Shown here: positions 15,888 through 55,130 of the stretch, in pieces | How positions within the stretch are numbered: position 1 is the first letter of the stretch | Layout: every line of letters starts with the position of its first letter | From: Candidatus Daviesbacteria bacterium | Lineage (GTDB): Bacteria > Patescibacteriota > Microgenomatia > Daviesbacterales > UBA10151 | DNA length: 64,000 nucleotides | Direction: 5' to 3' | Assembly (NCBI GenBank): GCA_030699125.1 | Contig: JAUYKM010000007.1 | Span: 5,082-69,081, forward strand | The notes under the pieces: model-generated | Told to the model about the DNA's origin: nothing | Seen by the model: only the letters and a program-made list of their open reading frames with translations | The model's database searches: none | Made by a program: the position numbers and the translations under genes

Positions 15888-15907
15888 AATCCGCCAGCTG
15901 GCGGATT
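15888..15907. repeat. family B palindrome AATCCGCCAGCTGGCGGATT (perfect, 20 bp), intergenic between convergent radA and the TPR membrane gene
   Basis: Perfect dyad; likely a bidirectional terminator-like hairpin. Confidence 0.8.
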
Positions 15908-15923
15908 CGGGTTTCCATTCGGG

Positions 15924-17924: not shown

Positions 17925-19930
17925 TACTGCTTATTTCATTAATCAGTTTTTTAATTCTCTATTTAGAGTTAGCTTTAATACGTTATCTTCCAGCATATAT
18001 TTATTATCTGGGATATTTTACAAATTTTATATTTATAGCCTCGATTCTGGGGATGGGGTTAGGGGTAATGCTGGGTGGACTAAAAAGGAATTTAATCCAT
18101 TTTGTATTACCTATACTTTTTATATTAATATTGGGAGCTAAATTTCTATATTTGGGAATAGATCCATCTGATCCCGGCATAATTTTTTTCAAAGACATAA
18201 ATAAAGGAAAGATTATCCTTAATAGTTCTTTTATAATCTCTCTGGTTTTTATATTGGTAGCATTAATTTTTACCTGTATATCGCAATCTTTGGGAAGATT
18301 ACTCAATCTTTCGCAAAAACCTCTGGCAGCTTATGTTGCTGACCTTATTGGTGCTATTTTAGGTGTTATCGTATTCCGTTTGGGAATATTTTATGCAGCA
18401 GAGCCTGCTATTTGGTTTTTGCAATTTTGTCTTTTTTTTTTAATATTTTATTACACCCAAATTAAATCTAAGGTTCGTATTTTTCAAATACTTATAGCCG
18501 CACTTTTAATTTTAGTAGTAGTAAGAAATATAGAAGGTTTTGAAAACATATGGTCTCCATATTACAAAATAACCGTAATTACGGACAATAAAACTAAAAC
18601 TACAGATGTTTATGCTAATGGTATTGGCCATCAATCTTTTTCTAGGCTGATTAATGCTAAAGCCTACAATTCAATCTATTCACAATTATCAAGACTTAAT
18701 CATCCTTTAAATAATTTATTGATTATTGGGGCAGGTACAGGTCAAGATGTATCTGCAGCATTGGCATTTGGGGCCAAACATATTGATGCGGTGGAAATTG
18801 ATCCCCAAATTTTAAAAATTGGTAAGGAAAGACACCCGGAAAAACCATATCAGGATCATAGGGTAAGTACTTATATTGATGACGGCAGGCATTTTTTGGA
18901 AGTAACTGATAAAAAATATGATTTCATAATTTTGGCGCTAACAGATTCACTTGTTGCTAATTCCAGGTTTGGACAAGCACGTTTGGAAGGTTACCTCTTT
19001 ACTGTCGAATCTTTCAAAAAAATTAGAGAAAAATTAAACGACGGAGGGTATATGGTGGCTTACAACGATTATAGACAGGATTGGTTGATTAAGCGTCTCA
19101 TAGATATGATGACTGTATCTTTTGGGAAATTTTATCAAGAAAGGGTAATCGGCAATTATTCCAGGATTTTACTTGCCAAAAATGAACCTGGAATGAATAC
19201 TCTCGTTATTCAGAAGTTATTACCAACTGATGATTGGCCTTTTCTTTATATAAAAGAGAAAAATATTCCGAGAGTATATTTGGATTCTTTAGGGATTATC
19301 TTATTAATTACTTTACTGAGCTTATGGCTGATTTTAAAAAAGGTAAAAATTATATCAGATAGGGTTTACGGAAGACTATTTTTATTTTTCTTCTTGGGCG
19401 CCGCCTTTGCACTTTTGGAAACAAAAAGTATCGGCCAGCTGGCTTTAATTTTTGGATCAACATGGTATGTTAATGCAGTAGCATTTATAGGGATATTATT
19501 GGTTACTCTTTTTGCAGCTTTATTAAACTTAAAATTTAATTTGATTAACACACGTATATTATTCATAGGATTATTTTTATCAATTGCTGCTCAATATTTT
19601 ATTCATCCGATTTCTTTTATGATGATAAATGAAGATTTTTCTAAGTTTATACTAGCTTTGATATATTTTTTCTTGCCTGTTGGATTTGCCAATTGTTTAT
19701 TTGCCAAATTTTTCAAAGAAAGTAAAACAGCTTCTTTAGAATTTGGCAGCAATCTATTAGGTTTGGTTTTTGGCTCGATGGTTGAGTATACGGTAATGAT
19801 AATTGGATTTATCAATTTAACTTTAATAATTGGATTATTTTATCTGATTGCCTTTATCGCTATGTTATTATTAAGCCGTGAGAAAATATCTTCTATCAGT
19901 TCTTCTGGCAGTAATATTCTTCATCGGTAA
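17912..19930 (+). CDS. membrane protein with central spermidine-synthase-like (PABS) methyltransferase-fold domain
   Basis: LLIIGAGTGQDVSAALAFGAKHIDAVEIDPQILKIGKERHP...DFIILALTDS = PABS/SAM-fold signature, flanked by multi-TM regions. Confidence 0.7.
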   Translation: MKKSLLLISLISFLILYLELALIRYLPAYIYYLGYFTNFIFIASILGMGLGVMLGGLKRNLIHFVLPILFILILGAKFLYLGIDPSDPGIIFFKDINKGKIILNSSFIISLVFILVALIFTCISQSLGRLLNLSQKPLAAYVADLIGAILGVIVFRLGIFYAAEPAIWFLQFCLFFLIFYYTQIKSKVRIFQILIAALLILVVVRNIEGFENIWSPYYKITVITDNKTKTTDVYANGIGHQSFSRLINAKAYNSIYSQLSRLNHPLNNLLIIGAGTGQDVSAALAFGAKHIDAVEIDPQILKIGKERHPEKPYQDHRVSTYIDDGRHFLEVTDKKYDFIILALTDSLVANSRFGQARLEGYLFTVESFKKIREKLNDGGYMVAYNDYRQDWLIKRLIDMMTVSFGKFYQERVIGNYSRILLAKNEPGMNTLVIQKLLPTDDWPFLYIKEKNIPRVYLDSLGIILLITLLSLWLILKKVKIISDRVYGRLFLFFFLGAAFALLETKSIGQLALIFGSTWYVNAVAFIGILLVTLFAALLNLKFNLINTRILFIGLFLSIAAQYFIHPISFMMINEDFSKFILALIYFFLPVGFANCLFAKFFKESKTASLEFGSNLLGLVFGSMVEYTVMIIGFINLTLIIGLFYLIAFIAMLLLSREKISSISSSGSNILHR

Positions 19931-22016
19931 TCTATTTATTCTGTCAGACTATGGAATTAATTGGGATTCGCCGCTACATATGCTAAGGGGACAGGCCTAT
20001 GCGGATATTTTCTTAAGGAGCAAGCCACAATTTAGCAAAGAATACCAAACTTCTCCCAATGTTATCTTCCCTTTCACATATGCCAGCAGATATTATTTTG
20101 CCGCCTCAGAAACAGGTGATTTGATTTTACCCAAGGTAACTTTACCCGAAAGACATCTTCCTCAAAAAGAATATGACAAAGATTTAAGTTTTTACCGGCA
20201 TCCTGATTATACCGGAGAGAGTTTTAAAGCTGCTGATGCCGGGCACTTGCCTTTGGTGGCAGTTTTATCTGCTTTTTCCAACAGGATATTTTGGGGGAAT
20301 TTTGGGTGGTTGGGGGATATTGAAAGCTATCAGTTGATTTATCTTTTCTTTTCAGCATTGGGGGTTTTTATAGTGAGTGCATTTGTCTTTGATATTACCC
20401 ACTCGTATCTTGCCTCAATTATTGGGGGATTATCTTTGGCTTTATTCCCGATGTTTTTTGCAGAAGCTCATATAAATTCCAAAGATCCTATTCAGGCATC
20501 TCTTTTTGCCGGGGCTGTTTGGAGTTTTTGGAGGTGGGTTAGGATGGGTCCGCCAGCTGGCGGATTGAAATGGTTTGGGATGTTTATGGCCTTTGTGGCG
20601 TTGGCCCTAGCAGTAAAGTGGAACATTGTTTTTCTCTCCCTAATTCTTTTGCCCTGGCTCATTTTAATAAGAAAAAGCGAGGAGTTTAAAAAATGGTTCA
20701 AACTCAGGAAACTAGTGCTTTTAAGTTTGCTATTTTTACTTTTTACTTTTTCATTTTTAATATTGATATGGCCTTATGCTTGGAATAATCCAATCCAGGC
20801 GAGCATTAATACCTTTAATTTCTATCTTAAGCAAGGTATAGGTACAGCATTGATACAACCACCGGGCTTCATTTTGCCCGGAGGTTTTAATATTTATCCT
20901 TTGATCCTATTTTTAACCCAAACTCCGGAGATAATTTTGATTTTAGGGGGGATAGGGATAATTGGGATAATCAGGAATAAATTTAAGACAAGTTATCTTC
21001 TGCTCCTTTGGCTGTTGATTTCCCTACTCAGGTTAAGTTTTCCTGAAGCCAGGACTTATGGAGGATTAAGACAGATTATGGAGGTTTTGCCGGTTATGGC
21101 TATTTTGGCTGGAGTAGGGGCAGGGTATCTGGTAAGGGTGATAAGTGACAAGTACAGTAAAGGTAACAAGTTTTTAGCACCAATTTTGTTACTTGTTACT
21201 TGTTACTTGTTACTTCTGCCCATTAGGCAGCTTCATCCCAACCAAAATGCATATTTTAATAGCTTGGCTGGGGGACTTAAGGGGGCTAAGGAAAAAGGGC
21301 TGATAGATTGGACTTTAACTTATGGAAACATCTATAAACAGGGGGCTTTGTGGCTTAATGAAAATGCTCAAATGAACAGTAATATTGCTCACCTGTCCGG
21401 TGCTGATTTTGCCCTGGCTCCTTTATGGCTTAGGGAAGATATCTCAATTTCCCCTTATCATTTTTCCGGATTTGATCAAGAAGGGGAATATATTTTAAGC
21501 TTATATAATCCTTTGGAAGTGCCTGTATTTGCGAAAAGGTATCCTGAGAGATTTTTAAATCCTGTCCATACTGTGGAAGTTGATGGAGTGGCTCTGCTTT
21601 TTATCTATAAAAATGAGCCTCAATATGCCAGGTTAGATCTTAAGAAAGAAGAAGAGATCAAAGTTGTTAAGATGGTGCCTCAAAGCTCAAAAGCAGCTGA
21701 TTTCTGGAGAATTGATTTAGGAAAGCAGTATCAGGTGACTAGAATAGTGGTTAATGGGGTGGATAGCAAATGCGCGGAAGGTGTTGAGCAAAAGGAGGCA
21801 ATAGCCTTTGATGTAGATTTAACCCGCGCCTATGTGTTAAATGAGAAAAAAGTCCGCCAGCTGGCGCCAAGTCAGACTTGGCTGGCGGATGGGGAAAGTA
21901 GGGTGGAGTATTTGTTTGCGGCCGAGCCAGCCAGATTTATTTATATTTACCCGCAAAATAATGAATCTTGCTTCTCTCAGGAAAAAGTTTTATCAATAAA
22001 CTATCTTAGTAATTAA
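19878..22016 (+). CDS. GT-C fold glycosyltransferase (PMT/ArnT-like) with C-terminal extracytoplasmic domain
   Basis: N-terminal DYGINWDSPLHMLRGQAY loop plus about 11 TM helices typical of GT39/GT83; 700 aa; contains in-frame palindromes at 20540 and 21853 and a (TTGTTAC)x4 tract. Confidence 0.6.
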   Translation: MRKYLLSVLLAVIFFIGNLFILSDYGINWDSPLHMLRGQAYADIFLRSKPQFSKEYQTSPNVIFPFTYASRYYFAASETGDLILPKVTLPERHLPQKEYDKDLSFYRHPDYTGESFKAADAGHLPLVAVLSAFSNRIFWGNFGWLGDIESYQLIYLFFSALGVFIVSAFVFDITHSYLASIIGGLSLALFPMFFAEAHINSKDPIQASLFAGAVWSFWRWVRMGPPAGGLKWFGMFMAFVALALAVKWNIVFLSLILLPWLILIRKSEEFKKWFKLRKLVLLSLLFLLFTFSFLILIWPYAWNNPIQASINTFNFYLKQGIGTALIQPPGFILPGGFNIYPLILFLTQTPEIILILGGIGIIGIIRNKFKTSYLLLLWLLISLLRLSFPEARTYGGLRQIMEVLPVMAILAGVGAGYLVRVISDKYSKGNKFLAPILLLVTCYLLLLPIRQLHPNQNAYFNSLAGGLKGAKEKGLIDWTLTYGNIYKQGALWLNENAQMNSNIAHLSGADFALAPLWLREDISISPYHFSGFDQEGEYILSLYNPLEVPVFAKRYPERFLNPVHTVEVDGVALLFIYKNEPQYARLDLKKEEEIKVVKMVPQSSKAADFWRIDLGKQYQVTRIVVNGVDSKCAEGVEQKEAIAFDVDLTRAYVLNEKKVRQLAPSQTWLADGESRVEYLFAAEPARFIYIYPQNNESCFSQEKVLSINYLSN
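20540..20555. repeat. family B palindrome TCCGCCAGCTGGCGGA in-frame in the GT-C gene (encodes GPPAGGL)
   Basis: Same core as 15888; read as ccg cca gct ggc gga. Confidence 0.8.
21853..21889. repeat. composite palindrome: family B core split by the family C palindrome (TCCGCCAGCTGGC-GCCAAGTCAGACTTGGC-TGGCGGA), in-frame (VRQLAPSQTWLAD)
   Basis: Nested dyads; the 17-mer GCCAAGTCAGACTTGGC also occurs at 25802. Confidence 0.8.
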
Positions 22017-22898: not shown

Positions 22899-22910
22899 AA
22901 GTTTCTTCTT

Positions 22911-22934
22911 GTCATTCCTGCGAAGGCAGGAATC
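22911..22934. repeat. family D hairpin GTCATTCCTGC-gaag-GCAGGAATC
   Basis: 8-bp stem ATTCCTGC/GCAGGAAT; intergenic. Confidence 0.7.
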
Positions 22935-22957
22935 TAATTAACAATTTGCGCTCATTT

Positions 22958-23662
22958 CTAATTGGATCCCCGCATACGCGGGGATGACGGTTCTTTCTTG
23001 CCTTTACATATAAAATAGGTTGATCTGTCAAAAAATGGCAGCAGTTTAAAGATGACATCTCTAAAGTCAGCTTCTTTCCATGATACCTCAATTGAGGTGG
23101 AGGGGATGATGGTCACCTTCTGAAAATACCGTTTTATCTTCCACCAATCCAAAGGAGTAGAACGGTACAAGATAAACCCACCATAATTGGCATATGGCCC
23201 CTCAAAAAAGCGGGGCAAAGCTTTTAAATTAAATCTGGAGTGAGTACTAAAAATAAAGAGGCCATTCGGTTTCATTACTCTTTTGGCCTCAGCAATACAC
23301 CGGTAAATATCAGGGTAAATACAGCTCATGCTGTTTGATGGAAAAAAAACTATATCAAAAGAATTGGGGGGAAATTTTAGGTTGCAGGCATCCATTTTGA
23401 AGACCTTGATAGGCAACCCCTTAACTTTTTCCTGGGCAGCCTCAACCATCTTGGGAGTGATATCAATGCCTGTGACCTGGTAGCTCATTTGGTGGAGTGG
23501 TATTAATGTCCTACCTGCCCCACAACCCAGCACCAATACTTTCTTGCCCCTGAAATATTTTTTGGCAAGATACTCTTCACCCGGGGTTAAATAATATTTT
23601 TTATATTCGTTAACCTGGGAGGAAAACATTTTGATATTGTGTTCCATTACCTGATTTAACAT
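22958..23662 (-). CDS. class I SAM-dependent methyltransferase; C-terminal 9 residues supplied by a hairpin repeat
   Basis: VLVLGCGAGRTLIPL (motif I), GIDITPKMVE; the ORF terminates inside repeat 22964-22988 (…SSPRMRGSN*). Confidence 0.75.
   Translation of the reverse strand: MLNQVMEHNIKMFSSQVNEYKKYYLTPGEEYLAKKYFRGKKVLVLGCGAGRTLIPLHQMSYQVTGIDITPKMVEAAQEKVKGLPIKVFKMDACNLKFPPNSFDIVFFPSNSMSCIYPDIYRCIAEAKRVMKPNGLFIFSTHSRFNLKALPRFFEGPYANYGGFILYRSTPLDWWKIKRYFQKVTIIPSTSIEVSWKEADFRDVIFKLLPFFDRSTYFICKGKKEPSSPRMRGSN
22964..22988. repeat. family D hairpin GGATCCCCGC-atac-GCGGGGATGAC, forms the 3' end of the methyltransferase ORF
   Basis: Stem ATCCCCGC/GCGGGGAT, GGATnCC...GGRATGAC termini shared with the other copies. 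Confidence 0.7.
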
Positions 23663-23686
23663 ATCTTTCAGAGTATATCACTCAGA

Positions 23687-24409: not shown

Positions 24410-24438
24410 TTGGTTAGAATATACTACTTTTACTTTTT

Positions 24439-25293
24439 ATGAAAGTTTTAGTTACCGGTGCGGCTGGATTTATCGGCAGTCACTTGAGCGATTATCTGAT
24501 TAAGAAAGGCTGCACAGTTTATGGAATAGATAACTGTCTTACAGGTGATAAATTAAACCTCCATCCCAAGGTCAAGTTTACCAAGATCGATATCCGAGAT
24601 AAAGTAAGATTGGACCATTTATTTAAAAAAACAGGGAAATTGGACTATGTTTTTCACCTGGCTGCTATTGCCAGAACTGGCTGGACTGTGACTGATCCGA
24701 CTCTGGCAAACGATATTAATATCACAGGTACCTTGAATGTTTTGTTGGCAGCCAGAGAAGCTATGCCTAAAAAGGTCATATTTGCCTCTTCCAACATTGT
24801 TTATGCCAAAAATACTCCATATTGGGTAACAAAAAAGACTGGAGAACTGTATATGCGCGTATTCGATAAACTCTATCACCTGCCCACTGTCTCGCTTCGT
24901 CTGTCCAATGCCTATGGCAGTTTAAGGCAGAGCGAGAAGGGGCCTGATATTAACTGTATTGCCAGCATGCGTAAATCAAAACAAGAAAATGGTTTTGTTT
25001 GGGTGAGCGGGGATGGCAAACAATCAAGAGATTTTACCCATGTTTTAGATATAGCGGAGGCCTTCTTAAAAGCGGCAAAATCCGATGTTCATGGAGCAGA
25101 GATTGATATCTGCACTGGTATCAATACCACTATCAATCAGATTGCCAAACAATTCAAATGTCCCATTAAATATGTGGATGAAAGGAAAGGAGATATCAAG
25201 CATATTTATCAAAATCCCCAAATGGCCGGGAAGCTCTTGGGATTTAAAGCCAAAAGAAAATTGGAGGACCATATCAGAGTCTATCTTAAATGA
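24439..25293 (+). CDS. NAD-dependent epimerase/dehydratase (SDR family, UDP-sugar 4-epimerase-like)
   Basis: MKVLVTGAAGFIGSHL Rossmann motif; YxxxK context (SNIVYAK). Confidence 0.8.
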   Translation: MKVLVTGAAGFIGSHLSDYLIKKGCTVYGIDNCLTGDKLNLHPKVKFTKIDIRDKVRLDHLFKKTGKLDYVFHLAAIARTGWTVTDPTLANDINITGTLNVLLAAREAMPKKVIFASSNIVYAKNTPYWVTKKTGELYMRVFDKLYHLPTVSLRLSNAYGSLRQSEKGPDINCIASMRKSKQENGFVWVSGDGKQSRDFTHVLDIAEAFLKAAKSDVHGAEIDICTGINTTINQIAKQFKCPIKYVDERKGDIKHIYQNPQMAGKLLGFKAKRKLEDHIRVYLK

Positions 25294-26687
25294 CATTCAA
25301 ACTGCACCAGAGTGCTTAAGCGGATTTTGGGTGGATCAATCCGGTCCTGCCTGATCAACTCCTCCGGTGAACATGGTTGATATTGATCACCATCTTGAGA
25401 AGGTATCAAACTGTTATATATTAGATAATATCCTCTTAAGTTTGGGCCTGCCGTGAGGTTTCTTATTAGAGGATTATCGTAAAAATCCCACAGCCTTTCC
25501 GGCGCATAAGTGATATTGACAGGATGGCTGTCCCAGCGACCCTTAGGATAATAAAAAGTGCCGATAACTTGAGTAAAGACGGAATAGATGATGGTGATAA
25601 TAAATAGAATGGTCAATAATCTATTTTTAAGGTGGGAGATTAAATAGTAACTCAAAATCACAGCCGGCACTGCCCCGTCTGTTAAGTATCTGTCTCCCCA
25701 AACCCAGCCGTCATCCACCAGGGCATAAACTGAATAAACAAAAAGAATGGCGTATAAAAAGATGAGATTTAAGAATAATACCTTGGACATTTTTTTCCAA
25801 AGCCAAGTCAGACTTGGCCAAAGCAGGATGGCGGCAAAGCCGAAGAAGAAAAAAGGAGTATAAAAAAGCAACCCTCTGGCCGGGGAGAAAAACAGCACAG
25901 CCAGATTGGACAGAAAGCGGGAAGGGTCAAAATATTTCCAGGATACAGCCTCGGTGCCTATTGGCATACCATAGAGATAATAATTTAGGGTCCCAAATAT
26001 GATTATTCCACCCAAGGTAATAATCGAGTATCTTCTCCAATATTTTTGATCTGCAAGAATGATCATGGTAAGTAAAATTGGCAAATAAATGATAAAAATA
26101 TTGCGGCTAAACAGGCATAAAATAGCCACAAGCAAAGAGAGAGTAAATTTCTTTCTGACAAAAAGGTATAAGGATAGGATTAAGAATAAGTTACTAAATG
26201 TATGCTGCCAAAGATGCTGGGAAGATATAGAAAAAGTCTGAGTGGCAAAGGCAAAAATGAGGGTAAAAATAAAACTTATCTTTTTGTTTGAGTAGATGGC
26301 ATTAAACAAGAAGAAAAATGCCACTATAGAAAGAGAGGACAAAAGGGAGGCAGTTAGCTTCTCAGCAACATATGAAATCCAGTAATAATTTTCCAGACCG
26401 GCCAAATTCAGCCACTGCATAATGAGGTAAAAAGGCAGATAAAAGGGAGTGGCCAAAACCCCTGGCAAGAGCGGGTAGGCGGAAATAAGGTGGTTGTTAA
26501 ATTCCTGCAGATAGGGAGGATTTTCTGGTAAAAAGGGTAGATAATCATCCAAAAATATCCCCTTACCTGAAAGAATATTAAAAGGTAGGAGCCTGGCAGG
26601 AGTATTATCCCCTGAGCCGGTAATATTTAAATTGATGTTATATAAGAAAAAAGATAAGAAAAATAGTAAAAGAGCATATTTTTTCAT
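25281..26687 (-). CDS. polytopic membrane protein, putative GT-C-type glycosyltransferase
   Basis: 468 aa, about 11 TM helices, periplasmic loops; contains the in-frame palindrome GCCAAGTCAGACTTGGC (WPSLTWLW). Confidence 0.5.
   Translation of the reverse strand: MKKYALLLFFLSFFLYNINLNITGSGDNTPARLLPFNILSGKGIFLDDYLPFLPENPPYLQEFNNHLISAYPLLPGVLATPFYLPFYLIMQWLNLAGLENYYWISYVAEKLTASLLSSLSIVAFFFLFNAIYSNKKISFIFTLIFAFATQTFSISSQHLWQHTFSNLFLILSLYLFVRKKFTLSLLVAILCLFSRNIFIIYLPILLTMIILADQKYWRRYSIITLGGIIIFGTLNYYLYGMPIGTEAVSWKYFDPSRFLSNLAVLFFSPARGLLFYTPFFFFGFAAILLWPSLTWLWKKMSKVLFLNLIFLYAILFVYSVYALVDDGWVWGDRYLTDGAVPAVILSYYLISHLKNRLLTILFIITIIYSVFTQVIGTFYYPKGRWDSHPVNITYAPERLWDFYDNPLIRNLTAGPNLRGYYLIYNSLIPSQDGDQYQPCSPEELIRQDRIDPPKIRLSTLVQFECHLR
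25802..25818. repeat. family C palindrome GCCAAGTCAGACTTGGC in-frame in the minus-strand membrane-protein gene (encodes PSLTW)
   Basis: Identical 17-mer to 21866-21882; in both genes the core encodes P-S-(Q/L)-T-W. Confidence 0.75.
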
Positions 26688-27424: not shown

Positions 27425-27470
27425 AAAATTTTAAGTTATTAAGTTATAATGATTTACGAATTAAAAATCA

Positions 27471-27532
27471 ATGAAGATTTGTTTTGTTACAGAAGATTTT
27501 TATCCAGACTTTATTGGCGGACAGAGGATAGA
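27471..27532 (+). repeat. about 60-bp duplicate of the 5' end of the GT4 gene at 28206 (ATGAAGATTTGTTTTGTTACAGAAGATTTTTATCCAGACTTTATTGGCGGACAGAGG) flanking the vapBC insertion
   Basis: Near-identical to 28215-28276 (encodes MKICFVTEDFYPDFIGGQ versus MRKLKICFVTEDFYPDFIGGQG). Confidence 0.8.
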
Positions 27533-41115: not shown

Positions 41116-41140
41116 GATCCCGTATCAAGTACGGGATGAC
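41116..41140. repeat. family D hairpin GATCCCGTA-tcaag-TACGGGATGAC just downstream of the O-antigen-ligase-like gene
   Basis: Stem ATCCCGTA/TACGGGAT. Confidence 0.65.
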
Positions 41141-43500: not shown

Positions 43501-43526
43501 TGTCATCCCGCCGAATGGCGGGATCC
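43501..43526. repeat. family D hairpin TGTCATCCCGCC-gaat-GGCGGGATCC in the 5' leader of the O-antigen-ligase-like gene
   Basis: Stem ATCCCGCC/GGCGGGAT. Confidence 0.7.
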
Positions 43527-43556
43527 AATTAACCATGTAAGCTAGGTTTTTAATTA

Positions 43557-43580
43557 GATTCCTGCATTCGCAGGAATGAC
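43557..43580. repeat. family D hairpin GATTCCTGC-attc-GCAGGAATGAC
   Basis: Same stem as 22911. Confidence 0.7.
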
Positions 43581-43715
43581 AGTGACGATAATTTTTTAGA
43601 TTACTACTCTAACATTACTAGGTTATAAATAGTTCTGACAAGTGGGTATAAATATATCAAAATGGTAATTTTTGGATCAGTTTTAGGAAAAAATCTTCCG
43701 TGAAAAAAATAATTT

Positions 43716-46700: not shown

Positions 46701-49700
46701 GATTGCAGCTGGAGCTGTATATCCTGCACCAACACCAATCATATTAACTACTAACCCTGGAGTACCTGAACTTACCCCAATCCCCACCATCCCTTGTGAA
46801 TATAATCCTCCTGGACCTATTCCCAACCCTCCACCTACTGTGAGCTGATTACTAATAATAGCTGATTCCCTGACTTGTAAAGCCCCGGCCTCCAATGATC
46901 CAATCTGTGCAGATGTAACATCTATTCCTCCTATATCATAAATCTGAAACTCACAACCTACATTAGTCTGAGCATCACAGGTGTTCGCATTGCTGACTTT
47001 TGTTGCATAGAGGTATCTTCCTGACACAAAAATTGTCTTATCAACATTACCTGCAGGAGCATTCCCTCCATTATCAGCCCCTCCTACAAATATAGGATTG
47101 GATGGATTAGACACATCATATACTTGTATCTCACAACCAATACTTGCAGAGAAACTACATAACCCAGGATTAGCAGCATTACTTAGATACAGATATTTTC
47201 CTGAAACAAAAACAGATCGAATAGCATTAACTACAGAAGCAGTGCTTACTTGTGTTGGAGAATAGGGATTAGATATTCTATAAACATAATATGTTCCACC
47301 ACTATCCCCTAAATAAGCATAACTTCCTGATACAAAAACTGATTCTATGCGATTAGTTCCCCCAGGAGCAACGCTACTTACTCGTATTGGTTTTATAGGA
47401 TTAGAAACATCATAAATATCTAAATAACTAGAGGCTGACCCCCCTCCCACATAAACATATCTTCCAGAAACAAATATAGAAATTGGGAAAGCACTAAGAG
47501 AAATCTGACTTACTAGTAAAGGTGAGGTCGGATCGGAAACGTCAGCAATTTCTAAAATATTAGAGCTATTAGCAATATAAGCATATCTACCTGAAACAAA
47601 TAAAGCAGCAGTACCTCCCGGAAAAGTTAGATTTAATCCTCCCGTGTATAAAGGTTTACTAGGGTTAGATATATCCCAAATTTGAAACTCACAACCATCT
47701 CTGGTAGTAGAAGAACAAGCACCATTGTTTACCCCCCTACCAAGATATAAATAATTTCCTGAAACATAAATAGAAGCAGCGCTACCAGTAAAGCCAGGGG
47801 TACCTGAAATCCCCGCTATAGCAACAGGAGAATTTGGATTAGATATATCATATATTAGAAGGAGACAATTAGTAAGAGTGCTGAGTGTACATGCATTACC
47901 AGTGCTATTATTTTTTCCTACATAAGCATACTTGCCTGAGATAAAGATAGCAGTTCCGTTATTAGTTGATGTAAAACTTGCCCCACCAATATACATAGGA
48001 TTTTGGGGGGTCTGTAACAAACTACCTCCTAATATATCAAGAGCACTTCTGGGGGCAGTAGTTCCAACACCTACATTACCTTGGGAGGTAACTGTAAATG
48101 GTAGTGGATTAGTTAAATTAGTTCCCACATAAGTAGGATTAATTTGGAAAAGCTGGGATGGTGAAGTCCAACCTATACCTATATTACCATTTAGGAATAC
48201 TGCTCCCGGGATATCATTTGAACCAAAGCCTGCTCCCCATAAGTGGAATGGTGCTATGGGACTGCTGGTCCCCAAACCTACATTCCCTTCCACAATCAAC
48301 CCATTGGCAGGAGCATTATAATAGGCAAAGGAGGAACCTATGCCCATAGATCCAAAGACCCCTAATCTGTTGGCTGAGGCAGAGGAACCTATTCCCAGTC
48401 TCATATTGGCATTATCCCAGAAGAATGGATCAGCTCCCTGAACCTGAGTCCCACCGCCATTAAAGAAGGTAACCTGGCCTGCTTCCGGGGTACCAAATGC
48501 CTCAATTCCTGAACCTCCGGCATCAGCATCACAAACTACCCTGCCTGAAGAATCTGTGGTTAACATACCATCACCGCAATTATAGATTTGCAATTGCAAA
48601 GCTGATCCTACTGTTAATGATTGTCCTATACCTACATTACCTACTACATGCAGTCCATATGTTGGGGTGGTGGTGCCAATGCCTACATTGCCAAAGACAG
48701 ATAATCCCAAGGAAGGCATGGCAGCAAAGGTATATCCGGTCCAGCCTATCCCCACATTTCCTCCCACAAAAAGGGTAGATCCCGGAGTAGAAGCCCCAAT
48801 TCCAAGATTTATCCCTACATTCCCTCCATTAAATATAGCAGCCGGAGCTGTATATCCGGTCCCCACTCCTAACATATTTACTACTAATCCTGGAGTCCCG
48901 GATGAAACCCCAATCCCCACCATTCCCTGGCTTAATAATCCTCCTGGTCCTATATTAATACCACTGTTAACTGTTAACTGATTACTGATAACTGCACTTT
49001 CTCTGACCTGTAACCCACCTGCCTCTAAACTACCTATTAATGCACTAGTTACATCTATACCCCCAATGTCATAAATCTGAAACTCACAATCTGTTTTTTT
49101 TGATGAACAGTTAGGACTACTAGAAGCTACACCATCTCCTACATATGCATACCTGCCTGAGACAAAAACTGTATTAGCAGCACTACTGCCAGCATCTGTA
49201 ACATTAGCCCCACCTACATATAATGGATTGTAAGGGTTTGAAACATCATAAACTTGTAATTCACAACCAGTAGAAGTAAAGAAGTTACAAGTTCCAGTAT
49301 TAACAGTTTTTCCTAAATACAAATATCTTCCTGAAACAAAGACAGAGTTAATACCATCTCCAGCAGAAGCTGTAGCTACTTGAGATGGAGAATAAGGATT
49401 GGATGTATCAAATATTCTCAATGTTCCACCACTATCTCCTATATATGCATATCTGCCTGAAACATAAACAGAGTTAGCAGTACCGCTAGTAGAAGTACTA
49501 CTTATCTGTATTGGATTGGTAGGATTAGTTACATCAAATATCTTTAAAGTAGTACCATCTCCTGCATAAGTGTATCTTCCTAAGGTAAATACAGAAGCTA
49601 TAGCATTCCCAGTATTTATTCCTCCTGTATATACAGGAGAAGTGGGGTTAGATACATCATAAATCTGTAATTCACAACCAGTATTTGTAGTAGAGGAACA

Positions 49701-52700
49701 GGTACCACCATTGGCAGCCTTGCCTAAATAGGCATACCTGCCTGATACAAAGACACTCTGGCCAGCATCCCCTCCATCATCTGCCCCACCTATATATAAT
49801 GGATTATTAGGATTGGATACATCATAAACTTGTAATTCACAACCAGTATTGGTGGTGGAGGAACAAGTACCAGCATTACCAGTTTTTCCTAAATATGCAA
49901 ATTTACCAGAAACATAGATACTCTCGACTAGATTAGCTATTTCAAAGCCATTTATAAAAGTTGGATTATTTGGATTAGAGACATCAAAAATCATAAACTC
50001 ACACCCTGTGTTGCTCCCTGCTGTACAACTACCAGTTTCAAATTCTGTTCCAACATAAGCATATTTACCTGAAACAAATATACTTGTTACTACTTGAGAA
50101 TCAGTTGCTTGTAGGTCTGATCCTCCTATAAAGGTAGGATTTTGGGGGGTTTGGAGGAGGGAACCACCTAAAATGTCCAGGGCACTTCTAGGAGCAGTTG
50201 TACCTACACCTACATTTCCCTGTGATGTAACTGTAAAAGGTAGGGGATTAGTTAATTGGGTTCCTACATATGTTGGATTAATCTGGAAGAGTTGGGAAGG
50301 TGAAGTCCAGCCTATACCCACATTGCCATTAAGAAATACTGCTCCCGGAGTTTCATTAGAAGCAAATCCTGCTCCCCAAAGATGGAAAGGAGCAATAGGA
50401 CTGCTGGTCCCCAAGCCTACATTACCCTCTATAACTAGAGAGTTGGAAGCTGGAGTCTGGAAACTGGAAAAAGAGGTACCAATACCCATAGATCCAAAGA
50501 CCCCTAATCTGTTAGCTGAGGCAGAAGAACCTACCCCTAACCTCATTAATTCATTATTCCAGAAGAGAGTATTAGCTCCGGTGACAGATGATCCCCCGTC
50601 AAAGAAGGTAACCTGGCCGGAGGCTGCGGAACCGGAAAGTGTATCTGCGCCGGAATCATCCTGACAAACTACTCTGCCGGAGGAGTCTGTAGTTAACTTA
50701 CCTCCACCACCTAAGCCATTACAAGCATAACCGGAAAGCTGCAAAGCAGACCCTACTGTGAGTGATTGTCCTATTCCTACGTTTCCTACTACCTGCAGTC
50801 CATATGTTGGGGTGGTGGTGCCAATGCCTACATTGCCAAATACAGATAACCCTAATCCTGGCATACTAGCAAAGGTAAATCCGGTCCAGCCAATCCCTAC
50901 ATTACCTCCAACAAATAATGTGGAACCTGGAGTAGAGGATCCTATCCCCAGATTAATCCCTACATTACCTCCATTAAATATAGCTGAGGGAGCAGTATAC
51001 CCTGTACCTACCCCTAACATATTAACCACTAACCCTGGAGTACCTGAACTTACCCCTATCCCTACCATTCCTTGTGATAATAATCCTCCTGGACCTAATC
51101 CTATTCCACCACCTACATAAAGCTGGTTATTTATGAATGCATTTTCCCTAACCTGTAACCCTCCAGCCTCAAGTGATCCAATCTGAGCAGATGTTACATC
51201 TATCCCAGAAATATCAAATACATTTATTCCACAGAAATTAGTATCCGAAGTACAAGTCTTAACGTTATTAAACTGCAGGGTATATAAATACCTACCAGAT
51301 ACAACTATTGCTGTACTACCACCCAAATTAGCAACTCCAGTATCTTTACCTCCTAAGAAAATAGGATTAGCAGGATTTGAGATATCCCAAAGTTGTATTG
51401 TACAACCAGAATTAGTTATGGAATTACACGTAGGATTAGGTAAACCAAGCTTATTTCCTCCCACAAATAAGTAGTTACCAGATACTGCAAAAGAGAATGC
51501 AAAAGCGCTACTAGTTCCAAAAGCATTAGTACTCATAAGAGTGGGACTGGCTGGATTTGAGATATCAAATATTTTGAATTGGCCAGTATTACCAGCATTA
51601 GTATAAGCATATCTACCGGAAACATAAATATCACCACTCTGAGATATTGCACTCATACTAGCTCCTCCTAAATATAAAGGACTGGCTGGATTTGAGATAT
51701 CATAAATCATGAATTCACAGCTAGTATTATCGGTAGAATTACAAGTACCAGCACCATTAGCCTTTCCTACATAAGCATATTTGCCGGAAACGAATAAACC
51801 AACAGCATTAACATTTAGGCTTACTGTTGATACACGAGTAGGATTAATTGGATTGGAGATATCATAAATTTGAAAAGCATGTGCAGTAACAGTAGTTATA
51901 TAAAGATATCTGCCAGATATTTGAAGACCTCTAATACTGCCAGATACAGATACCTGTCCAACAAGAGCAGGGGCTGTTGGATTAGATATATCATAAACTC
52001 GTAAATTAAGTCCTGTTCCAACATAAGCATAATTCCCCACAACATATACTCCACCAACAAGGCTAGAGCCAATGGTTGCACTGCCTATCTGAGTTGGCGT
52101 AGAAGGATTACTAATATCTAAAATTATCAAACCAGTACTATTTAGAATATACAAATATCTACCTGAGACAAAAACTTCATTTTGACCGCTATTATTATTT
52201 TGTCCAGCGGTAATATTATTAGAAGTACCATTAGTTCCCCCAACCCAGGTAAGATTTTGGGGGGTTTGGAGTAAACTACCACCTAAGATATCCAGAGCAG
52301 ACCTAGGAGCAGTAGTTCCTACTCCTACATTACCTTGGGAAGTAACTGTAAAAGGTAGCGGATTAGTTAACTGAGTCCCTACATAAGTTGGGTTTATCTG
52401 GAATAATTGGGATGGAGAAGTCCAGCCAATTCCTATATTACCATTTAAGAATATTCCTGAGACAGTGCCATTACCCCATACATGTAAGGGAGCAATGGGG
52501 GAAGAAGTACCCAGACCTACATTTCCTTCCACAATTAATCCATTAGCAGGAGCATTATAATAGGCAAAAGATGAACCAATCCCTAATGATCCAAAGACCC
52601 CAAGGGTGTTGGCTGAGGCAGAGGAACCTATACCTAATCTCATTAATTCATTATTCCAATAAAATGGAGTTGCACCCTGAACCTGAGTCCCGCCTCCGTC

Positions 52701-55130
52701 AAAGAAGGTGACCTGTCCTGCCTCCGGACTACCTGCTGCCTCAATTCCTGAACCTCCGGCATCAGCATCACAGATTACCCTGCCGGATGAATCTGTGGTT
52801 AACATACCGTCACCGCAATTATAGATTTGCAATTGCAAAGCTGATCCTACTGTTAATGATTGTCCTATTCCTATATTACCTATGACCTGCAGTCCATAAG
52901 TTGGGGAAGTAGTACCTATACCCACATTACCAAATACAGATAACCCTAACCCTGGCATGCTAGCAAATGTATATCCAGTCCAACCAATCCCTACATTTCC
53001 TCCCACTACCAGTGTGGCTCCTGGTGTGGAAGATCCAATTCCTAAATTAATCCCTACATTTCCCCCATTAAAAATGGCAGCCGGAGCAGTATACCCAGTC
53101 CCTATTCCTAACATCTCTACTCTTAACCCAACTGTTCCACTACTTACTCCTATTCCCACCATCCCCTGACTTAATATTCCTCCTGGTCCCACCCCTAATC
53201 CTCCTCCTACTGATAGCTGATTACTAATTATTGCTGATTCCCTGACTTGTAAAGCCCCGGCCTCCAGTGATCCAATCTGTGCAGATGTCACATCTATACC
53301 TGATATATCATATATCTGAAATTCGCAACCGTCATTGGTAGTAGTACAAGACCCACTATTTAAAGCTACTCCAGCATATGCATATCTACCAGAGATAAAG
53401 ATTGATTGAATGTAATTTAAAGTACTCGCCCCTCCTATAAATAGAGGCAGAGCCGGATTAGAAATATCATAAATCTTAAATTCACAACCAGTGCTATCAG
53501 TAGATGAACAAGTTCCAGTGTCTAGACTACTCCCTATATACAAATACTTGCCTGAAACATAGATAGAACGCGCAATCGCCGCAAAGGAGAGACTACTTAT
53601 TTGAGTTGGTGAGTAAGGATTAGATATATCATAAATTTGCATTGAAGCATTACCACTCCGTGCCGCATATGCATATCTACCTGATACAAAAATTGAGCCA
53701 TAATTAATTGATATATCTGCCCCTCCTACAAATACCGGGTTTGTGGGATTAGAAATATCATAAATCTGGAATTCACAACCAGTATTAGTAGTTGAGGAAC
53801 AAGTGCCAGCGTTACTATCTTTTCCTATATAGGCATATCTGCCTGAAACAAAGATAGGGCGATCTATAGAATTATTGCCAATATCATTATCCCCATTATC
53901 TGCCCCTCCTACAAATACCGGGTTTGTGGGATTAGAAATATCATAAATCTGGAATTCACAACCACCAGGAGTAGTAGAATTACAAGTACTGGTATTAAGA
54001 TCTTTCCCTACATATGCATACCTGCCTGAAACAAATACAGCGTTGATTCCTTCAGCTCCATCATCTGCACCACCTACAACCCTGGGTCTTGCCGGATCAG
54101 ATATATCTATAATTTGCAGTTCACAATTATTAAAATTGGTACTGGTACTGGCACAGGCGGCGGCGCTACCAGTTCTTCCTATATAGGCATATCTGCCTGA
54201 AACAAAGACAGCTAGGACGGCTGTGGGATTAATACTACCAACAGTTATTGTTGTTGGAGCAGCAGGATTAGATACATCGATTACCTTAAAACCTCCAGAA
54301 TCTCCAACATAAGCATATTTACCGGAGACAAAAACAGGATGAGGGGCGTTGTTTAAGGTTAGTCCTCCTACAAAGGTGGGATTTTGGGGGGTTTGGAGGA
54401 GGGAACCACCCAGGATATCTAAGGCAGATCTGGGAGCAGTAGTACCAACTCCTACATTTCCCTGGCTAGTAACTACAAAGGGTAAAGGATTAGTTAATTG
54501 AGTACCTACATATGTAGGATTAATTTGGAATAATTGAGAAGGTGATGTCCAGCCAATTCCTACATTTCCTCCCGTTAAATAAGTATTATGAGCCACAATA
54601 TCATTACCCAGAAAATTATGGGTGCCTTCTATTTGCAGATCATATGTTCTGCCTCTTTTTACCTTAGAAACCGAAGCAATTTCTTCCCACCCATCTATGG
54701 TGGCAATAAACATGCCCGGTTTAATGGATTGAACTTTTAACCATTCCCCGTCAATTAATGGCTTGCCACGTACCGACTGGTACTGTGGTGAACCTCTTAA
54801 GTCCTGGTTGCTGTGGCCCATGATTTTGACAAAATAGGGATGTTCTTTGGTGGTCCTGATTCTTTTACCTTGGGAAGTAATCAGCTCGTATAGATCCTGG
54901 ATGCCTTTGAAGAGGGCAGCCTCCACAGTATGCCATTCAAAATAACCTGTCCTCTCATTTAAAGATAGAATCTCATCCCCCGGCTGAATTTGCTCCACCG
55001 GTACTTCTTCCTCAATCCATCCGCCAGCTGGCGGATCGATTTTTTTGATGTTAGCTACCTTCTCCAACTTACCGTCTATGGAGAGTAACATTCCTACATC
55101 CAGGTCTGATACTTTAATTTGGTTTTTCAT
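43716..55130 (-). CDS. giant modular surface protein (3,804 aa): N-terminal Hint/mini-intein domain, four modules of about 700 aa (Gly-rich tail-fibre-like repeats + LVIVD beta-propeller blades), C-terminal tandem about 100-aa domains
   Basis: Hint blocks GKRIRTTKEHPYFV (TxxH) and TYDLQIEGTHNFLGNDIVAHN|T; repeated GNVGIGTTSPxYGLxVxGNVGIG units; blades YAYVGxxxGxxxIYDISNPxxP; uninterrupted 11.4-kb ORF; ATGA overlap with the upstream paralog. Confidence 0.85.
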   Translation of the reverse strand: MKNQIKVSDLDVGMLLSIDGKLEKVANIKKIDPPAGGWIEEEVPVEQIQPGDEILSLNERTGYFEWHTVEAALFKGIQDLYELITSQGKRIRTTKEHPYFVKIMGHSNQDLRGSPQYQSVRGKPLIDGEWLKVQSIKPGMFIATIDGWEEIASVSKVKRGRTYDLQIEGTHNFLGNDIVAHNTYLTGGNVGIGWTSPSQLFQINPTYVGTQLTNPLPFVVTSQGNVGVGTTAPRSALDILGGSLLQTPQNPTFVGGLTLNNAPHPVFVSGKYAYVGDSGGFKVIDVSNPAAPTTITVGSINPTAVLAVFVSGRYAYIGRTGSAAACASTSTNFNNCELQIIDISDPARPRVVGGADDGAEGINAVFVSGRYAYVGKDLNTSTCNSTTPGGCEFQIYDISNPTNPVFVGGADNGDNDIGNNSIDRPIFVSGRYAYIGKDSNAGTCSSTTNTGCEFQIYDISNPTNPVFVGGADISINYGSIFVSGRYAYAARSGNASMQIYDISNPYSPTQISSLSFAAIARSIYVSGKYLYIGSSLDTGTCSSTDSTGCEFKIYDISNPALPLFIGGASTLNYIQSIFISGRYAYAGVALNSGSCTTTNDGCEFQIYDISGIDVTSAQIGSLEAGALQVRESAIISNQLSVGGGLGVGPGGILSQGMVGIGVSSGTVGLRVEMLGIGTGYTAPAAIFNGGNVGINLGIGSSTPGATLVVGGNVGIGWTGYTFASMPGLGLSVFGNVGIGTTSPTYGLQVIGNIGIGQSLTVGSALQLQIYNCGDGMLTTDSSGRVICDADAGGSGIEAAGSPEAGQVTFFDGGGTQVQGATPFYWNNELMRLGIGSSASANTLGVFGSLGIGSSFAYYNAPANGLIVEGNVGLGTSSPIAPLHVWGNGTVSGIFLNGNIGIGWTSPSQLFQINPTYVGTQLTNPLPFTVTSQGNVGVGTTAPRSALDILGGSLLQTPQNLTWVGGTNGTSNNITAGQNNNSGQNEVFVSGRYLYILNSTGLIILDISNPSTPTQIGSATIGSSLVGGVYVVGNYAYVGTGLNLRVYDISNPTAPALVGQVSVSGSIRGLQISGRYLYITTVTAHAFQIYDISNPINPTRVSTVSLNVNAVGLFVSGKYAYVGKANGAGTCNSTDNTSCEFMIYDISNPASPLYLGGASMSAISQSGDIYVSGRYAYTNAGNTGQFKIFDISNPASPTLMSTNAFGTSSAFAFSFAVSGNYLFVGGNKLGLPNPTCNSITNSGCTIQLWDISNPANPIFLGGKDTGVANLGGSTAIVVSGRYLYTLQFNNVKTCTSDTNFCGINVFDISGIDVTSAQIGSLEAGGLQVRENAFINNQLYVGGGIGLGPGGLLSQGMVGIGVSSGTPGLVVNMLGVGTGYTAPSAIFNGGNVGINLGIGSSTPGSTLFVGGNVGIGWTGFTFASMPGLGLSVFGNVGIGTTTPTYGLQVVGNVGIGQSLTVGSALQLSGYACNGLGGGGKLTTDSSGRVVCQDDSGADTLSGSAASGQVTFFDGGSSVTGANTLFWNNELMRLGVGSSASANRLGVFGSMGIGTSFSSFQTPASNSLVIEGNVGLGTSSPIAPFHLWGAGFASNETPGAVFLNGNVGIGWTSPSQLFQINPTYVGTQLTNPLPFTVTSQGNVGVGTTAPRSALDILGGSLLQTPQNPTFIGGSDLQATDSQVVTSIFVSGKYAYVGTEFETGSCTAGSNTGCEFMIFDVSNPNNPTFINGFEIANLVESIYVSGKFAYLGKTGNAGTCSSTTNTGCELQVYDVSNPNNPLYIGGADDGGDAGQSVFVSGRYAYLGKAANGGTCSSTTNTGCELQIYDVSNPTSPVYTGGINTGNAIASVFTLGRYTYAGDGTTLKIFDVTNPTNPIQISSTSTSGTANSVYVSGRYAYIGDSGGTLRIFDTSNPYSPSQVATASAGDGINSVFVSGRYLYLGKTVNTGTCNFFTSTGCELQVYDVSNPYNPLYVGGANVTDAGSSAANTVFVSGRYAYVGDGVASSSPNCSSKKTDCEFQIYDIGGIDVTSALIGSLEAGGLQVRESAVISNQLTVNSGINIGPGGLLSQGMVGIGVSSGTPGLVVNMLGVGTGYTAPAAIFNGGNVGINLGIGASTPGSTLFVGGNVGIGWTGYTFAAMPSLGLSVFGNVGIGTTTPTYGLHVVGNVGIGQSLTVGSALQLQIYNCGDGMLTTDSSGRVVCDADAGGSGIEAFGTPEAGQVTFFNGGGTQVQGADPFFWDNANMRLGIGSSASANRLGVFGSMGIGSSFAYYNAPANGLIVEGNVGLGTSSPIAPFHLWGAGFGSNDIPGAVFLNGNIGIGWTSPSQLFQINPTYVGTNLTNPLPFTVTSQGNVGVGTTAPRSALDILGGSLLQTPQNPMYIGGASFTSTNNGTAIFISGKYAYVGKNNSTGNACTLSTLTNCLLLIYDISNPNSPVAIAGISGTPGFTGSAASIYVSGNYLYLGRGVNNGACSSTTRDGCEFQIWDISNPSKPLYTGGLNLTFPGGTAALFVSGRYAYIANSSNILEIADVSDPTSPLLVSQISLSAFPISIFVSGRYVYVGGGSASSYLDIYDVSNPIKPIRVSSVAPGGTNRIESVFVSGSYAYLGDSGGTYYVYRISNPYSPTQVSTASVVNAIRSVFVSGKYLYLSNAANPGLCSFSASIGCEIQVYDVSNPSNPIFVGGADNGGNAPAGNVDKTIFVSGRYLYATKVSNANTCDAQTNVGCEFQIYDIGGIDVTSAQIGSLEAGALQVRESAIISNQLTVGGGLGIGPGGLYSQGMVGIGVSSGTPGLVVNMIGVGAGYTAPAAIFNGGNVGINLGIGTSTPGSTLFVGGNVGIGWTGNTFSSIPGLGLSVFGNVGIGRTSANYGVDVAGNAGIGVSLTVGSALRLQSYNCSGLSGGGKLTTDSAGRVVCEADAGAGLTGTGTAPQIAVWDGTSSITGYSTFEYDSTNLVLEIGDNVNTTPNGLDVDGELAIGCVDACNIASEGRIWVQSNGTTFRFNSDATTADYSEYIKQEDASEPGDVMILTPGTPGVGFDSPGVVRRSNSSYDENIIGVITTRGTSYNNPDDNRDSDPTYANVGMLGQVWVKVNLENGPIYTGDPLTSSSTTGEAMKATKTGRIIGRAMEDYLATPGVGSDSPGVSSTGAPPGQILMQVNVTWWEAEQFIERLDSGLLYLDGNLAIGATPYGASFDSPGVSLSVGGSVLSTSNILSLGNVGVGTTNPLYGLTIEKEASSSAAASIVNLSGVDTPDTSGLRIGLGTAVSGVSSNFIDFYAGVASDSAGVRVGRIRLNDNKVAYESTGADFAEYFDALEETEDGDLVSLATPGAGLDSPGVSHSGVAKSSIPYDQNLIGVVSKDAAFVGNADYTPGVGLDSPGVNKAIVGLLGQIKTKVSTINGDIKRGDYLTSSEIPGVAAKATRPGQVIGQALEDFSANTGSTPGVENCAYTPGVECGQILVHVKSGFADPGNFFSSLTMDNEGNLIIPKLKVASLTIDSRGIEDSNLKIEDSRLITDSSSPSSTLDPQNTTIYSPSSTVQFYDLSGKIATLESRIKNLELRIKEENTEATPSAEIAGISSEASDSAELALYDTLIHRSTDALDLTPPDILLASDSATLTADLKVTSSAQILGSLTAYDAIIQNSLKSFGTTTLGNTLIAGNLTIDGTLSFSENTIDALSTLYLQKSQLASSIDIFNGKITLEKDGTIKAKTIIVDQIKVKQDQTAGVGIIPAGQIQASIKNPHIDETSVILLTPKVPLGQLITVTNKSDGSFTVKLSKSETKDVEFDYLIVSGNPTVGIGPPSP
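44769..44809. repeat. in-frame palindromic element, variant pair CCACACCCGGTGTG ... CCACACCGGGTGTGG (encodes TPGVENCAYTPGVE)
   Basis: Two copies of a self-complementary 13-mer 12 nt apart inside giant gene 1. Confidence 0.6.
44989..45022. repeat. in-frame 34-bp palindromic element CACACCGGGGG-agtcaaggccca-CCCCCGGTGTG (encodes TPGVGLDSPGV)
   Basis: 11-bp perfect inverted arms; family A. Confidence 0.85.
45117..45150. repeat. family A palindromic element (encodes TPGAGLDSPGV); absent at the homologous site of the paralog
   Basis: Gene 1 ...actca[ccccgggggaatcaaggcccgcccccgggg]tggctaggctt versus gene 2 (56628) ...actca-tggttaggctt: an exact 30-bp in-frame indel. Confidence 0.9.
45534..45570. 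repeat. family A palindromic element, right arm decayed (encodes TPYGASFDSPGV)
   Basis: CACACCGGGGGAGTCAAAGCTCGCACCGTACGGTGTG. Confidence 0.7.
45699..45732. repeat. family A palindromic element (encodes TPGVGSDSPGV)
   Basis: CACACCGGGGGAGTCAGAGCCCACCCCCGGTGTG. Confidence 0.85.
46002..46035. repeat. family A palindromic element (encodes TPGVGFDSPGV)
   Basis: CACCCCGGGGGAGTCAAAGCCCACCCCCGGTGTG. Confidence 0.85.
55019..55036. repeat. family B palindrome ATCCGCCAGCTGGCGGAT in-frame in the Hint domain of giant gene 1 (encodes IDPPAGGW)
   Basis: Same 14-nt core, same reading frame as at 20540. Confidence 0.8.

Follow-up and report, generated by a model that had tools for sequence, protein, structure and literature searches.

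The recurrence of two short palindromes in unrelated genes of one genome, with one palindrome lodged inside the other at one position, raises the question of how these sequences came to be there. The stretch analyzed here (64 kb, hereafter the window) has a GC content of about 40% and belongs to a metagenome-assembled, low-GC genome of Candidatus Daviesbacteria (CPR). The initial annotation, which found these palindromes, described them as always in one frame and proposed that they are either in-frame mobile hairpin elements or target sites of a DNA-processing system. From the distribution of the copies, their comparison with orthologs, and their occurrence in other genomes, we think it likely that both palindromes, which we call families B and C, are insertion elements of a very small, palindromic, and non-autonomous kind and that they belong to a set of GC-rich hairpin repeats nested in one another.

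Palindromes and hairpins in the window

The family B 14-mer, CCGCCAGCTGGCGG, occurs exactly at 15891, 20550, and 55021 and as a split copy with one mismatch at 21854, and the 16-mer TCCGCCAGCTGGCGGA has only those four sites in the window even when 3 mismatches are allowed, against 0.05 expected from shuffles. The intergenic copy (15888..15907, no strand assigned) is a 20-nt perfect palindrome, AATCCGCCAGCTGGCGGATT, inside the 49-nt spacer that separates two convergent genes, one RadA-like (end at 15874) and the other a TPR gene (end at 15924), in agreement with its earlier description as a convergent-gene hairpin. Its DNA folding energy is -7.8 kcal/mol (z = -4.2). An intrinsic terminator was considered for this copy and rejected because neither strand carries a T-run, and a terminator scan made no call there. 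Two further copies lie in a GT39/PMT_2 glycosyltransferase gene (19878-22016, plus strand), whose product matches a protein of a Candidatus Daviesbacteria metagenome-assembled genome at 100% identity. The first, at 20549..20564 on the plus strand, is read G-PPAGG-L, which upholds the earlier report of an in-frame PPAGG copy in this gene and corrects its position, given as 20540. The second, at 21853..21889 on the plus strand, is a composite in which the family B 16-mer is split by a 21-nt family C insertion (layout TCCGCCAGCTGG[CGCCAAGTCAGACTTGGCTGG]CGGA), read V-RQLA-PSQTW-LA-D in the frame of the gene; the nesting first noted at this position is thus real. The remaining copy (55019..55036, minus strand) is an 18-nt palindrome, ATCCGCCAGCTGGCGGAT, that occupies codons 32-37 of a giant gene at 43716-55130 and is read D-PPAGG-W. 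This reading too was given before, together with a placement in the Hint domain that does not hold, as the copy corresponds to residues 33-37 and the Pfam intein-splicing (Hint) match to residues 42-182, just downstream. Close orthologs of this N-terminus were not found, and its homologs are few and distant. Family B is free of stop codons in all frames, and in the window it is read in two of them, as PPAGG at 20549 and 55019 and as RQLA at 21853.

The family C 17-mer, GCCAAGTCAGACTTGGC, has two exact sites, 21866 and 25802, and no other site in the window at up to 3 mismatches, where chance would give 0.02-0.17. Its 15-nt core is CCNNGTCWGACNNGG, that is, CCAAGTC[A/T]GACTTGG, commonly seen as a 17-mer GCC...GGC. 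In the nested unit (21861..21887, plus strand), the core CCAAGTCAGACTTGG at 21867-21881 stands between CTGGCG direct repeats at 21861-21866 and 21882-21887; equivalently, the unit can be seen as the 17-mer at 21866-21882 plus a 4-nt TGGC duplication. The other unit (25797..25823, minus strand) lies in a membrane-protein gene (25281-26687, minus strand, 468 aa), with its core at 25803-25817 between CCAAAG direct repeats, and is read W-PSLTWLW-KKM on the gene strand, in line with the in-frame 17-mer first reported at 25802 in another membrane-protein gene, which is an exact copy read PSLTW. Five of the six combinations of frame and orientation of family C are stop-free, and both window copies are read PS[Q/L]TW. 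The recurrence seen by the initial annotation is therefore well above chance, with three exact and one split copy of family B and two exact copies of family C against 0.01-0.2 expected. Rfam places no RNA family at any family B or C copy.

A hairpin census of the window returned a further family, ATTCCTGC-N4-GCAGGAAT and relatives ("family A", the first family of the initial annotation). Its members are a hairpin at 22914..22933 on the plus strand (tGTC-ATTCCTGC-GAAG-GCAGGAAT-CTA) and five others at 22966-22985, 41117-41137, 43505-43524, 43558-43577, and 55890-55909, all six with a (C/T)GTC tag, an 8-bp stem starting AT, a 4-nt loop, and a CCA or CTA tail followed by ATTA. The hairpin at 22966 falls in the final codons of a methyltransferase gene, and the one at 55890 lies within the second giant gene. 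A tag, an 8-bp AT-starting stem, a 4-nt loop, and a CCA tail define the CGTC-1 REPs, and the CGTC REPs are described as having no dedicated transposase (Di Nocera et al. 2013, PMC3733652). Judged by these sequence features, the six window hairpins fit CGTC-1 exactly, and the CGTC super-family appears to be unreported in CPR.

Other features of the window deserve mention in their own right. The two giant genes (43716-55130 and 55127-63964) are adjacent on the minus strand and encode 3804 aa and 2945 aa; the former has an N-terminal intein-splicing/Hint domain, then LVIVD repeats. The 23S rRNA gene (8889-13249) is 4361 nt long against a model of 2925 positions and holds ~1.4 kb of insertions, among which a LAGLIDADG homing-endonuclease ORF (11020-11496) suggests an intron. 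A palindrome in this gene, ACCCCGATTTAATCGGGGT, was considered as an insertion and rejected as a native rRNA helix. The palindrome (A)CCCCGATTTAATCGGGG(T) at 9156-9174 is a native helix (model positions 273-295), and the palindromes of 15-17 nt resembling it in two protein genes (2374-2388 and 36847-36863) may be coincidence. The genes for tRNA-Ile(GAT) and tRNA-Ala(TGC), which usually stand side by side in the 16S-23S spacer, are ~8.5 kb apart here (141-8774), with genes for PGK, GAPDH, a Phd/YefM antitoxin, a dockerin-domain protein, and other proteins between them.

Gain of the copies relative to orthologs

The protein of the GT39 gene was aligned with 29 homologs of 45-62% identity. At the first site (20549), the window protein has 4 extra residues that are present in none of the 29 (RMGPPAGGLKW versus KSNN--LGW), and by this alignment family B is an insertion there. 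At the second site (21853), the window protein is longer by 11 residues, of which family B accounts for 4 and family C for 7. One ortholog, P0002, has the 4 residues, and the other 28 have neither element. The P0002 DNA at this site, GTTCATCAGTTGGCGAAT, is a decayed family B copy (13 of 18 positions match) and contains no family C. Because P0002 has only the decayed B, the simplest history would be that family B entered first, adding 12 nt, and that family C then entered family B, adding 21 nt; family B insertion at this second site is inferred less securely than at the first. A 6-aa insertion in the same GT39 loop of two other orthologs, FGRLGV, is non-palindromic and was set aside as unrelated.

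In the membrane-protein gene at 25281-26687, seven residues of the window protein, bracketed in W[PSLTWLW]KKM, are missing from the other 18 homologs in the alignment. The closest ortholog, P0104, is 71% identical, and its DNA (L244) provides an empty site for family C at the nucleotide level, reading CTGCTTTGGAAAAAAATG. Around this site L244 has CTG CTTTGG AAAAAAATG, and the window has CTG CTTTGG CCAAGTCTGACTTGG CTTTGG AAAAAAATG. The target CTTTGG is thus found once in P0104 and twice in the window, around the 15-nt core, for a net gain of 21 nt and 7 aa. This pair of empty and filled sites indicates that the element at 25797 consists of the 15-nt core and a 6-nt target duplication or, in the other description, of the 17-mer and a 4-nt duplication. 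By these alignments, the testable in-gene copies (the two GT39 sites and 25802) are lineage-specific insertions. The comparison with orthologs proposed in the initial annotation therefore favors insertion over the occurrence of the palindromes in alignable homologous protein motifs.

Families C and B in other genomes

A scan of metagenome contigs with the family C 17-mer gave at least 120 matches and a viral-contig scan gave 2; after de-duplication, the matches listed contain 132 unique copies. Direct repeats of 5-6 nt abut the 15-nt core in 52 of these 132 copies, against a chance expectation that we estimate at ~0.1 of 132, and 71 have no flanking duplication. The duplication of 5-6 nt relative to the 15-mer equals one of 3-4 nt relative to the 17-mer, and each such insertion lengthens the sequence by 20 or 21 nt. 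CGAAG and CTTCG are the duplications seen most often. Removing the element and one repeat reconstructs empty sites that include perfect CGTC REPs, such as GTCATTCCTGCGAAAGCAGGAATCCA, and perfect stems of at least 5 bp are present at 5 of the 52 reconstructed sites compared with 0.9% of control C-N3/4-G sites; many of the other sites are imperfect REP-like centers. In other contigs, among the matches listed, family C lands most often in CGTC-type REP hairpins. Its preferred targets are the loop or center of existing hairpins, namely CGTC-type REPs and family B. The target specificity itself is not readable from this set because the 17-mer query imposed G...C flanks, and the C...G ends that the duplications seem to have are in part an effect of this ascertainment. 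A second, independent composite of family C in family B, with the same junction as at 21853, lies in an unrelated gene (L144).

Family C is also reiterated. Three loci (L134, L139, and L205) carry tandem arrays with a period of 21 and 100% identity. Variants of the stem (GCCGAG..CTCGGC, TCGAG..CTCGA, and GCCACG..CGTGGC) have flanking duplications of their own, so CC-NN-GTC-W-GAC-NN-GG looks like the conserved determinant. At another locus (L207, 13222-13290), tandem C-like 17-mers with AA spacers and a period of 19 lie within an open frame of 742 codons, and their mutually compensated stems differ (ACCAAG.., ACCGAG.., and ACCACG..).

The initial view that the palindromes are always in one frame fails for both families, since family B has two frames in the window and family C is read in three in long open frames elsewhere (AKSDLA 27 times, PS[L/Q]TW 14 times, and xQVRLG 7 times). 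Among the family C copies with duplications, to which this comparison applies, the ratio of those adding 21 nt to those adding 20 nt is 8:1 well within open frames that have 250 codons or more and 7:19 outside open frames (Fisher p=0.002). Insertion in sizes of 20 or 21 nt, with purifying selection acting afterward, would account for the in-frame status of the copies, with no need for a frame-aware mechanism.

Family B was sought as the 16-mer in one genome per species, which gave at least 120 matches. The first 80 loci listed include 31 from CPR and 20 from Bacteroidota, among them the isolate Mucilaginibacter flavidus, and further copies are found in Cloacimonadota and Elusimicrobia among the matches listed. 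Most of the matches listed are in genomes of 30-50% GC, and several loci hold multiple copies per 8 kb. The inner sequence GCCAGCTGGC occurs nearly always within the full 16-mer, as estimated from an unbiased 0.8-Mb sample. Family B often forms the center of longer, genome-specific palindromes (L045, L084, L036, and L052), and at L114 it is flanked by the AT-rich heptamer repeats GAAAATT and TTTAAAA. Its flanking direct repeats reveal no consistent duplication; apparent 10-nt repeats beside it (period 26) were rejected as such, being confined to AT-rich repeat contexts. The net gains are likewise inconsistent (+12, +12, +8, and +13 nt), and BLAST recovered no family B empty site from the fetched loci, with self matches only among the matches listed. 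In two loci, family B replaces a few nucleotides of a partial tRNA copy: 8 nt, GCAACTGC, in a copy of tRNA-Lys (L057, 3987-4047 versus 4120-4196) and 3 nt of the D-loop in a copy of tRNA-Asn (L062, 2180-2545).

These partial 5′ copies of tRNA-Asn and tRNA-Lys adjoin the intact genes, and the nucleotides replaced are from the D-arm or anticodon-stem region. In L062, a GIY-YIG gene is bracketed by two such tRNA fragments bearing family B. A third GC-rich palindrome family, CCTGCCTGCCGGCAGGCAGG, was seen among the loci retrieved with family B as well as those retrieved with family C (L016, L018, L019 at 128-147, L033, L038, L095, L098, L156, L185, L214, and L226) and is absent from the window.

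Mechanism, alternatives, and known elements

Family C has a defined core, a short target duplication of fixed length, a preference for hairpin loops or centers, a tendency to reiterate, and a tolerance of open reading frames. We infer that a trans-acting enzyme would make a cut staggered by ~4 nt at loops that are exposed in hairpins or cruciforms, that repair of the resulting gaps would generate the target duplication, and that in coding DNA only insertions of 3n nucleotides in tolerant loops would survive, giving the appearance of in-frame insertion. Family B lacks a target duplication and may move by a different mechanism.

No gene that could mobilize either family is present in the window. 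When essentially every ORF of 100 aa or more in the 64 kb was scanned with Pfam, no transposase, RAYT, or GIY-YIG gene was detected, and across about 240 loci from other genomes no transposase family recurs among the neighbors and no parent IS with ends matching family C was seen. We know of no characterized transposase synaptic complex that fits an element as short as 15-17 bp. When the ORFs of low-GC loci were clustered, GIY-YIG proteins of ~90-100 aa (Pfam PF01541) were the most recurrent neighbors after ABC ATPases. Ten of 17 GIY-YIG ORFs lie within 125 nt of a family B or C copy, and 9 of 13 GIY-YIG genes lie within 150 nt of one compared with 164 of 1274 other genes (OR 15, p=5e-6), a statistic in which about five of the adjacent cases share one module and are non-independent. 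Several GIY-YIG genes have CGTC-type hairpins on both sides or, in L062, family B copies. The tRNA, hairpin, family C, and GIY-YIG features all favor permissive intergenic DNA. The association is thus a lead, not a finding, and it makes small GIY-YIG proteins the best candidate mobilizer, encoded outside the window. The GIY-YIG/Slx1-like nucleases of CPR and Bacteroidota, which are abundant and about 90-100 aa long, might act as structure-specific nickases at hairpin loops. A wider scheme, in which nested mini-palindromes spread across phyla with CGTC REPs as hosts and elements with 15-17-nt cores, families B and C among them, as parasites, all moved in trans by such loop nickases, seems to us speculative and of low probability.

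GIY-YIG genes that lie within 125 nt of a family B or C copy, or that stand between hairpins of the CGTC type, were seen at L198, L221, L139, L055, L062, and L029. A conserved module consisting of a tRNA 3′ end, a GAGTCAAACTC hairpin, family C, an AT-rich stretch, and a GIY-YIG gene was observed at L133, L176, L200, L222, and L235.

Other origins for the palindromes must be weighed against insertion. Family B, and possibly some family C copies, could be templated patches rather than products of transposition, left during repair or replication by template switching, by gene conversion, or as filler DNA at breaks, nucleating at quasi-matching sites or hairpin loops and replacing a few nucleotides. 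The missing target duplication of family B would fit such an origin, as would a net gain at each GT39 site (12 nt) that is smaller than the unit (16 nt), the resemblance of the 8 nt replaced in the tRNA-Lys copy to the inner GCCAGCTGGC of family B, the 3 nt replaced in the tRNA-Asn D-loop, and the fact that variants remain perfect palindromes, as if one arm templated the other. However, an identical 16-mer with unrelated flanks across phyla would require a common template or a sequence-specific enzyme, and neither the clean fixed-length duplications of family C nor its clean empty site are predicted by template switching, and we regard this origin as unlikely. We judge it rather less probable still that the copies are primarily functional hairpins (attenuators, RNA-processing signals, or protein-binding sites) maintained by selection instead of selfish spread. 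Four of the five window sites bearing family B or C are within ORFs and contribute 4-11 residues to variable loops, and flanking duplications, nesting, and tandem arrays are what insertion characteristically leaves. The hairpins are stable, and a function would suit the copy at 15888, placed exactly between convergent genes yet lacking a T-run, as well as the family C copies that occupy, in several contigs, a conserved spot just past the 3′ end of a tRNA or abutting its 5′ end, some of them followed by a T-run. Any function of the copies is likely a secondary exaptation.

The second proposal of the initial annotation was that the palindromes are target sites for a DNA-processing system. Such a system might be restriction-modification-like, with the sites enriched by a mutational or selective ratchet as for cyanobacterial HIP1; in its favor are the PvuII site CAGCTG inside family B and the dyad symmetry of both families, as expected of sites for homodimeric proteins. 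CAGCTG is neither avoided nor enriched in the window (33 observed versus 33.1 expected), recurrence in the 0.8-Mb sample is nearly always that of the full 16-mer and not of shorter cores, and the motifs were gained by insertions that lengthen the gene and that orthologs lack, whereas substitutions would fall in alignable positions, which makes this proposal very improbable. Chance, a conserved protein motif, or an assembly or sequencing artifact has next to no probability. In high-GC genomes the family B 16-mer is indeed ordinary coding sequence, as in the ABC-ATPase motif IRQLAE, but shuffles expect at most 0.2 copies in the window, the peptides are missing from orthologs, the copies preserve very long ORFs, and the same elements, with duplications, are found in an isolate genome as well as in assemblies that many independent studies produced. 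On the strength of the ortholog alignments, all three are excluded for the window copies. Insertion of mobile hairpin elements, the first of the initial proposals, is favored by the lineage-specific gains, the family C empty site, and the duplications; the fixed frame that was attached to it is not.

Very small mobile palindromes, including REPs, the small dispersed repeats (SDRs) of Nostoc, and organellar GC clusters, are common, and their way of moving is mostly not known. By analogy, the closest relatives in behavior of families B and C seem to be the Nostoc SDRs, the REPs, and the Rickettsia palindromic elements (RPEs). The repeats SDR1-8 of Nostoc punctiforme and its relatives are reportedly nested hairpin units of ~20-27 nt whose mechanism is not known, and they are said to show compensatory stem variation and presence or absence between homologous genes, with some copies in tandem heptamer repeats. 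Families B and C share with them, judged by the description of SDRs and not by their sequences, the unit size of ~20-27 nt, the hairpins, the compensatory stem variation, the nesting, the occasional setting in heptamer repeats (here family B in L114), the presence or absence between homologous genes, and the lack of a known mobilizing enzyme. They are likewise dispersed and polymorphic between orthologs, and they nest at two places, 21853 and L144. In PMC5861425, SDR5 is described as inserting at HIP1 and SDRs as restricted to Nostocaceae. In contrast, the hosts of families B and C are CPR, Bacteroidota, and other phyla, not cyanobacteria, and the window, from a CPR host, has zero occurrences of HIP1. 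The fixed short target duplication and CGTC-REP loop preference of family C and the presence of identical 16-17-mers across phyla also distinguish them from SDRs.

REPs of the GTAG and CGTC super-families (Di Nocera et al. 2013, PMC3733652), like families B and C, are short, dispersed, GC-rich palindromes, mostly intergenic, sometimes intragenic, and sometimes within other palindromes. However, families B and C are perfect palindromes, the flanks of all their copies differ, with no GTAG or CGTC tag and no CCA tail, and REPs serve as their landing sites. REPINs are mobilized by RAYT transposases (PMC3116915), and the target duplications of family C are unlike the outcome of HUH/RAYT-type transposition. 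RPEs are palindromes of ~100-150 bp inserted in-frame in unrelated protein-coding genes (PMC10969869). Families B and C resemble them in adding peptide segments in-frame at tolerated positions of unrelated genes, but an RPE has one conserved peptide in one frame, whereas families B and C are units of 16-21 nt that add 12-21 nt, are read in several frames, and nest in hairpin loops. Family C alone also resembles MITEs in its inverted-repeat arms, its target site duplication of fixed length, and its non-autonomy; family B is without a duplication. MITEs are typically 50-500 bp in size, and family C, two abutting arms of 7-8 bp around one base, with a core of 15-17 nt and no parent IS seen, is several-fold smaller.

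Neither palindrome sequence was found in the literature searched, and a literature search for palindromic elements in CPR or for a link between GIY-YIG proteins and REPs found nothing relevant. Families B and C are real and widespread, and they appear to be undescribed in CPR. Because family C offers a defined core, a duplication, a hairpin target, empty sites, and a candidate enzyme, its mobility can be tested both in metagenomic populations and in vitro. Through such elements, CPR proteins gain loop insertions of 4-11 residues, and the recurrent rare-codon peptides that result (PPAGG, RQLA, PSQTW, and AKSDLA) could mislead homology and motif analyses. If the GIY-YIG reading were true, it would supply the missing enzyme for the orphan CGTC REPs and for SDR-like elements and would make elements of this kind the smallest transposable units known.
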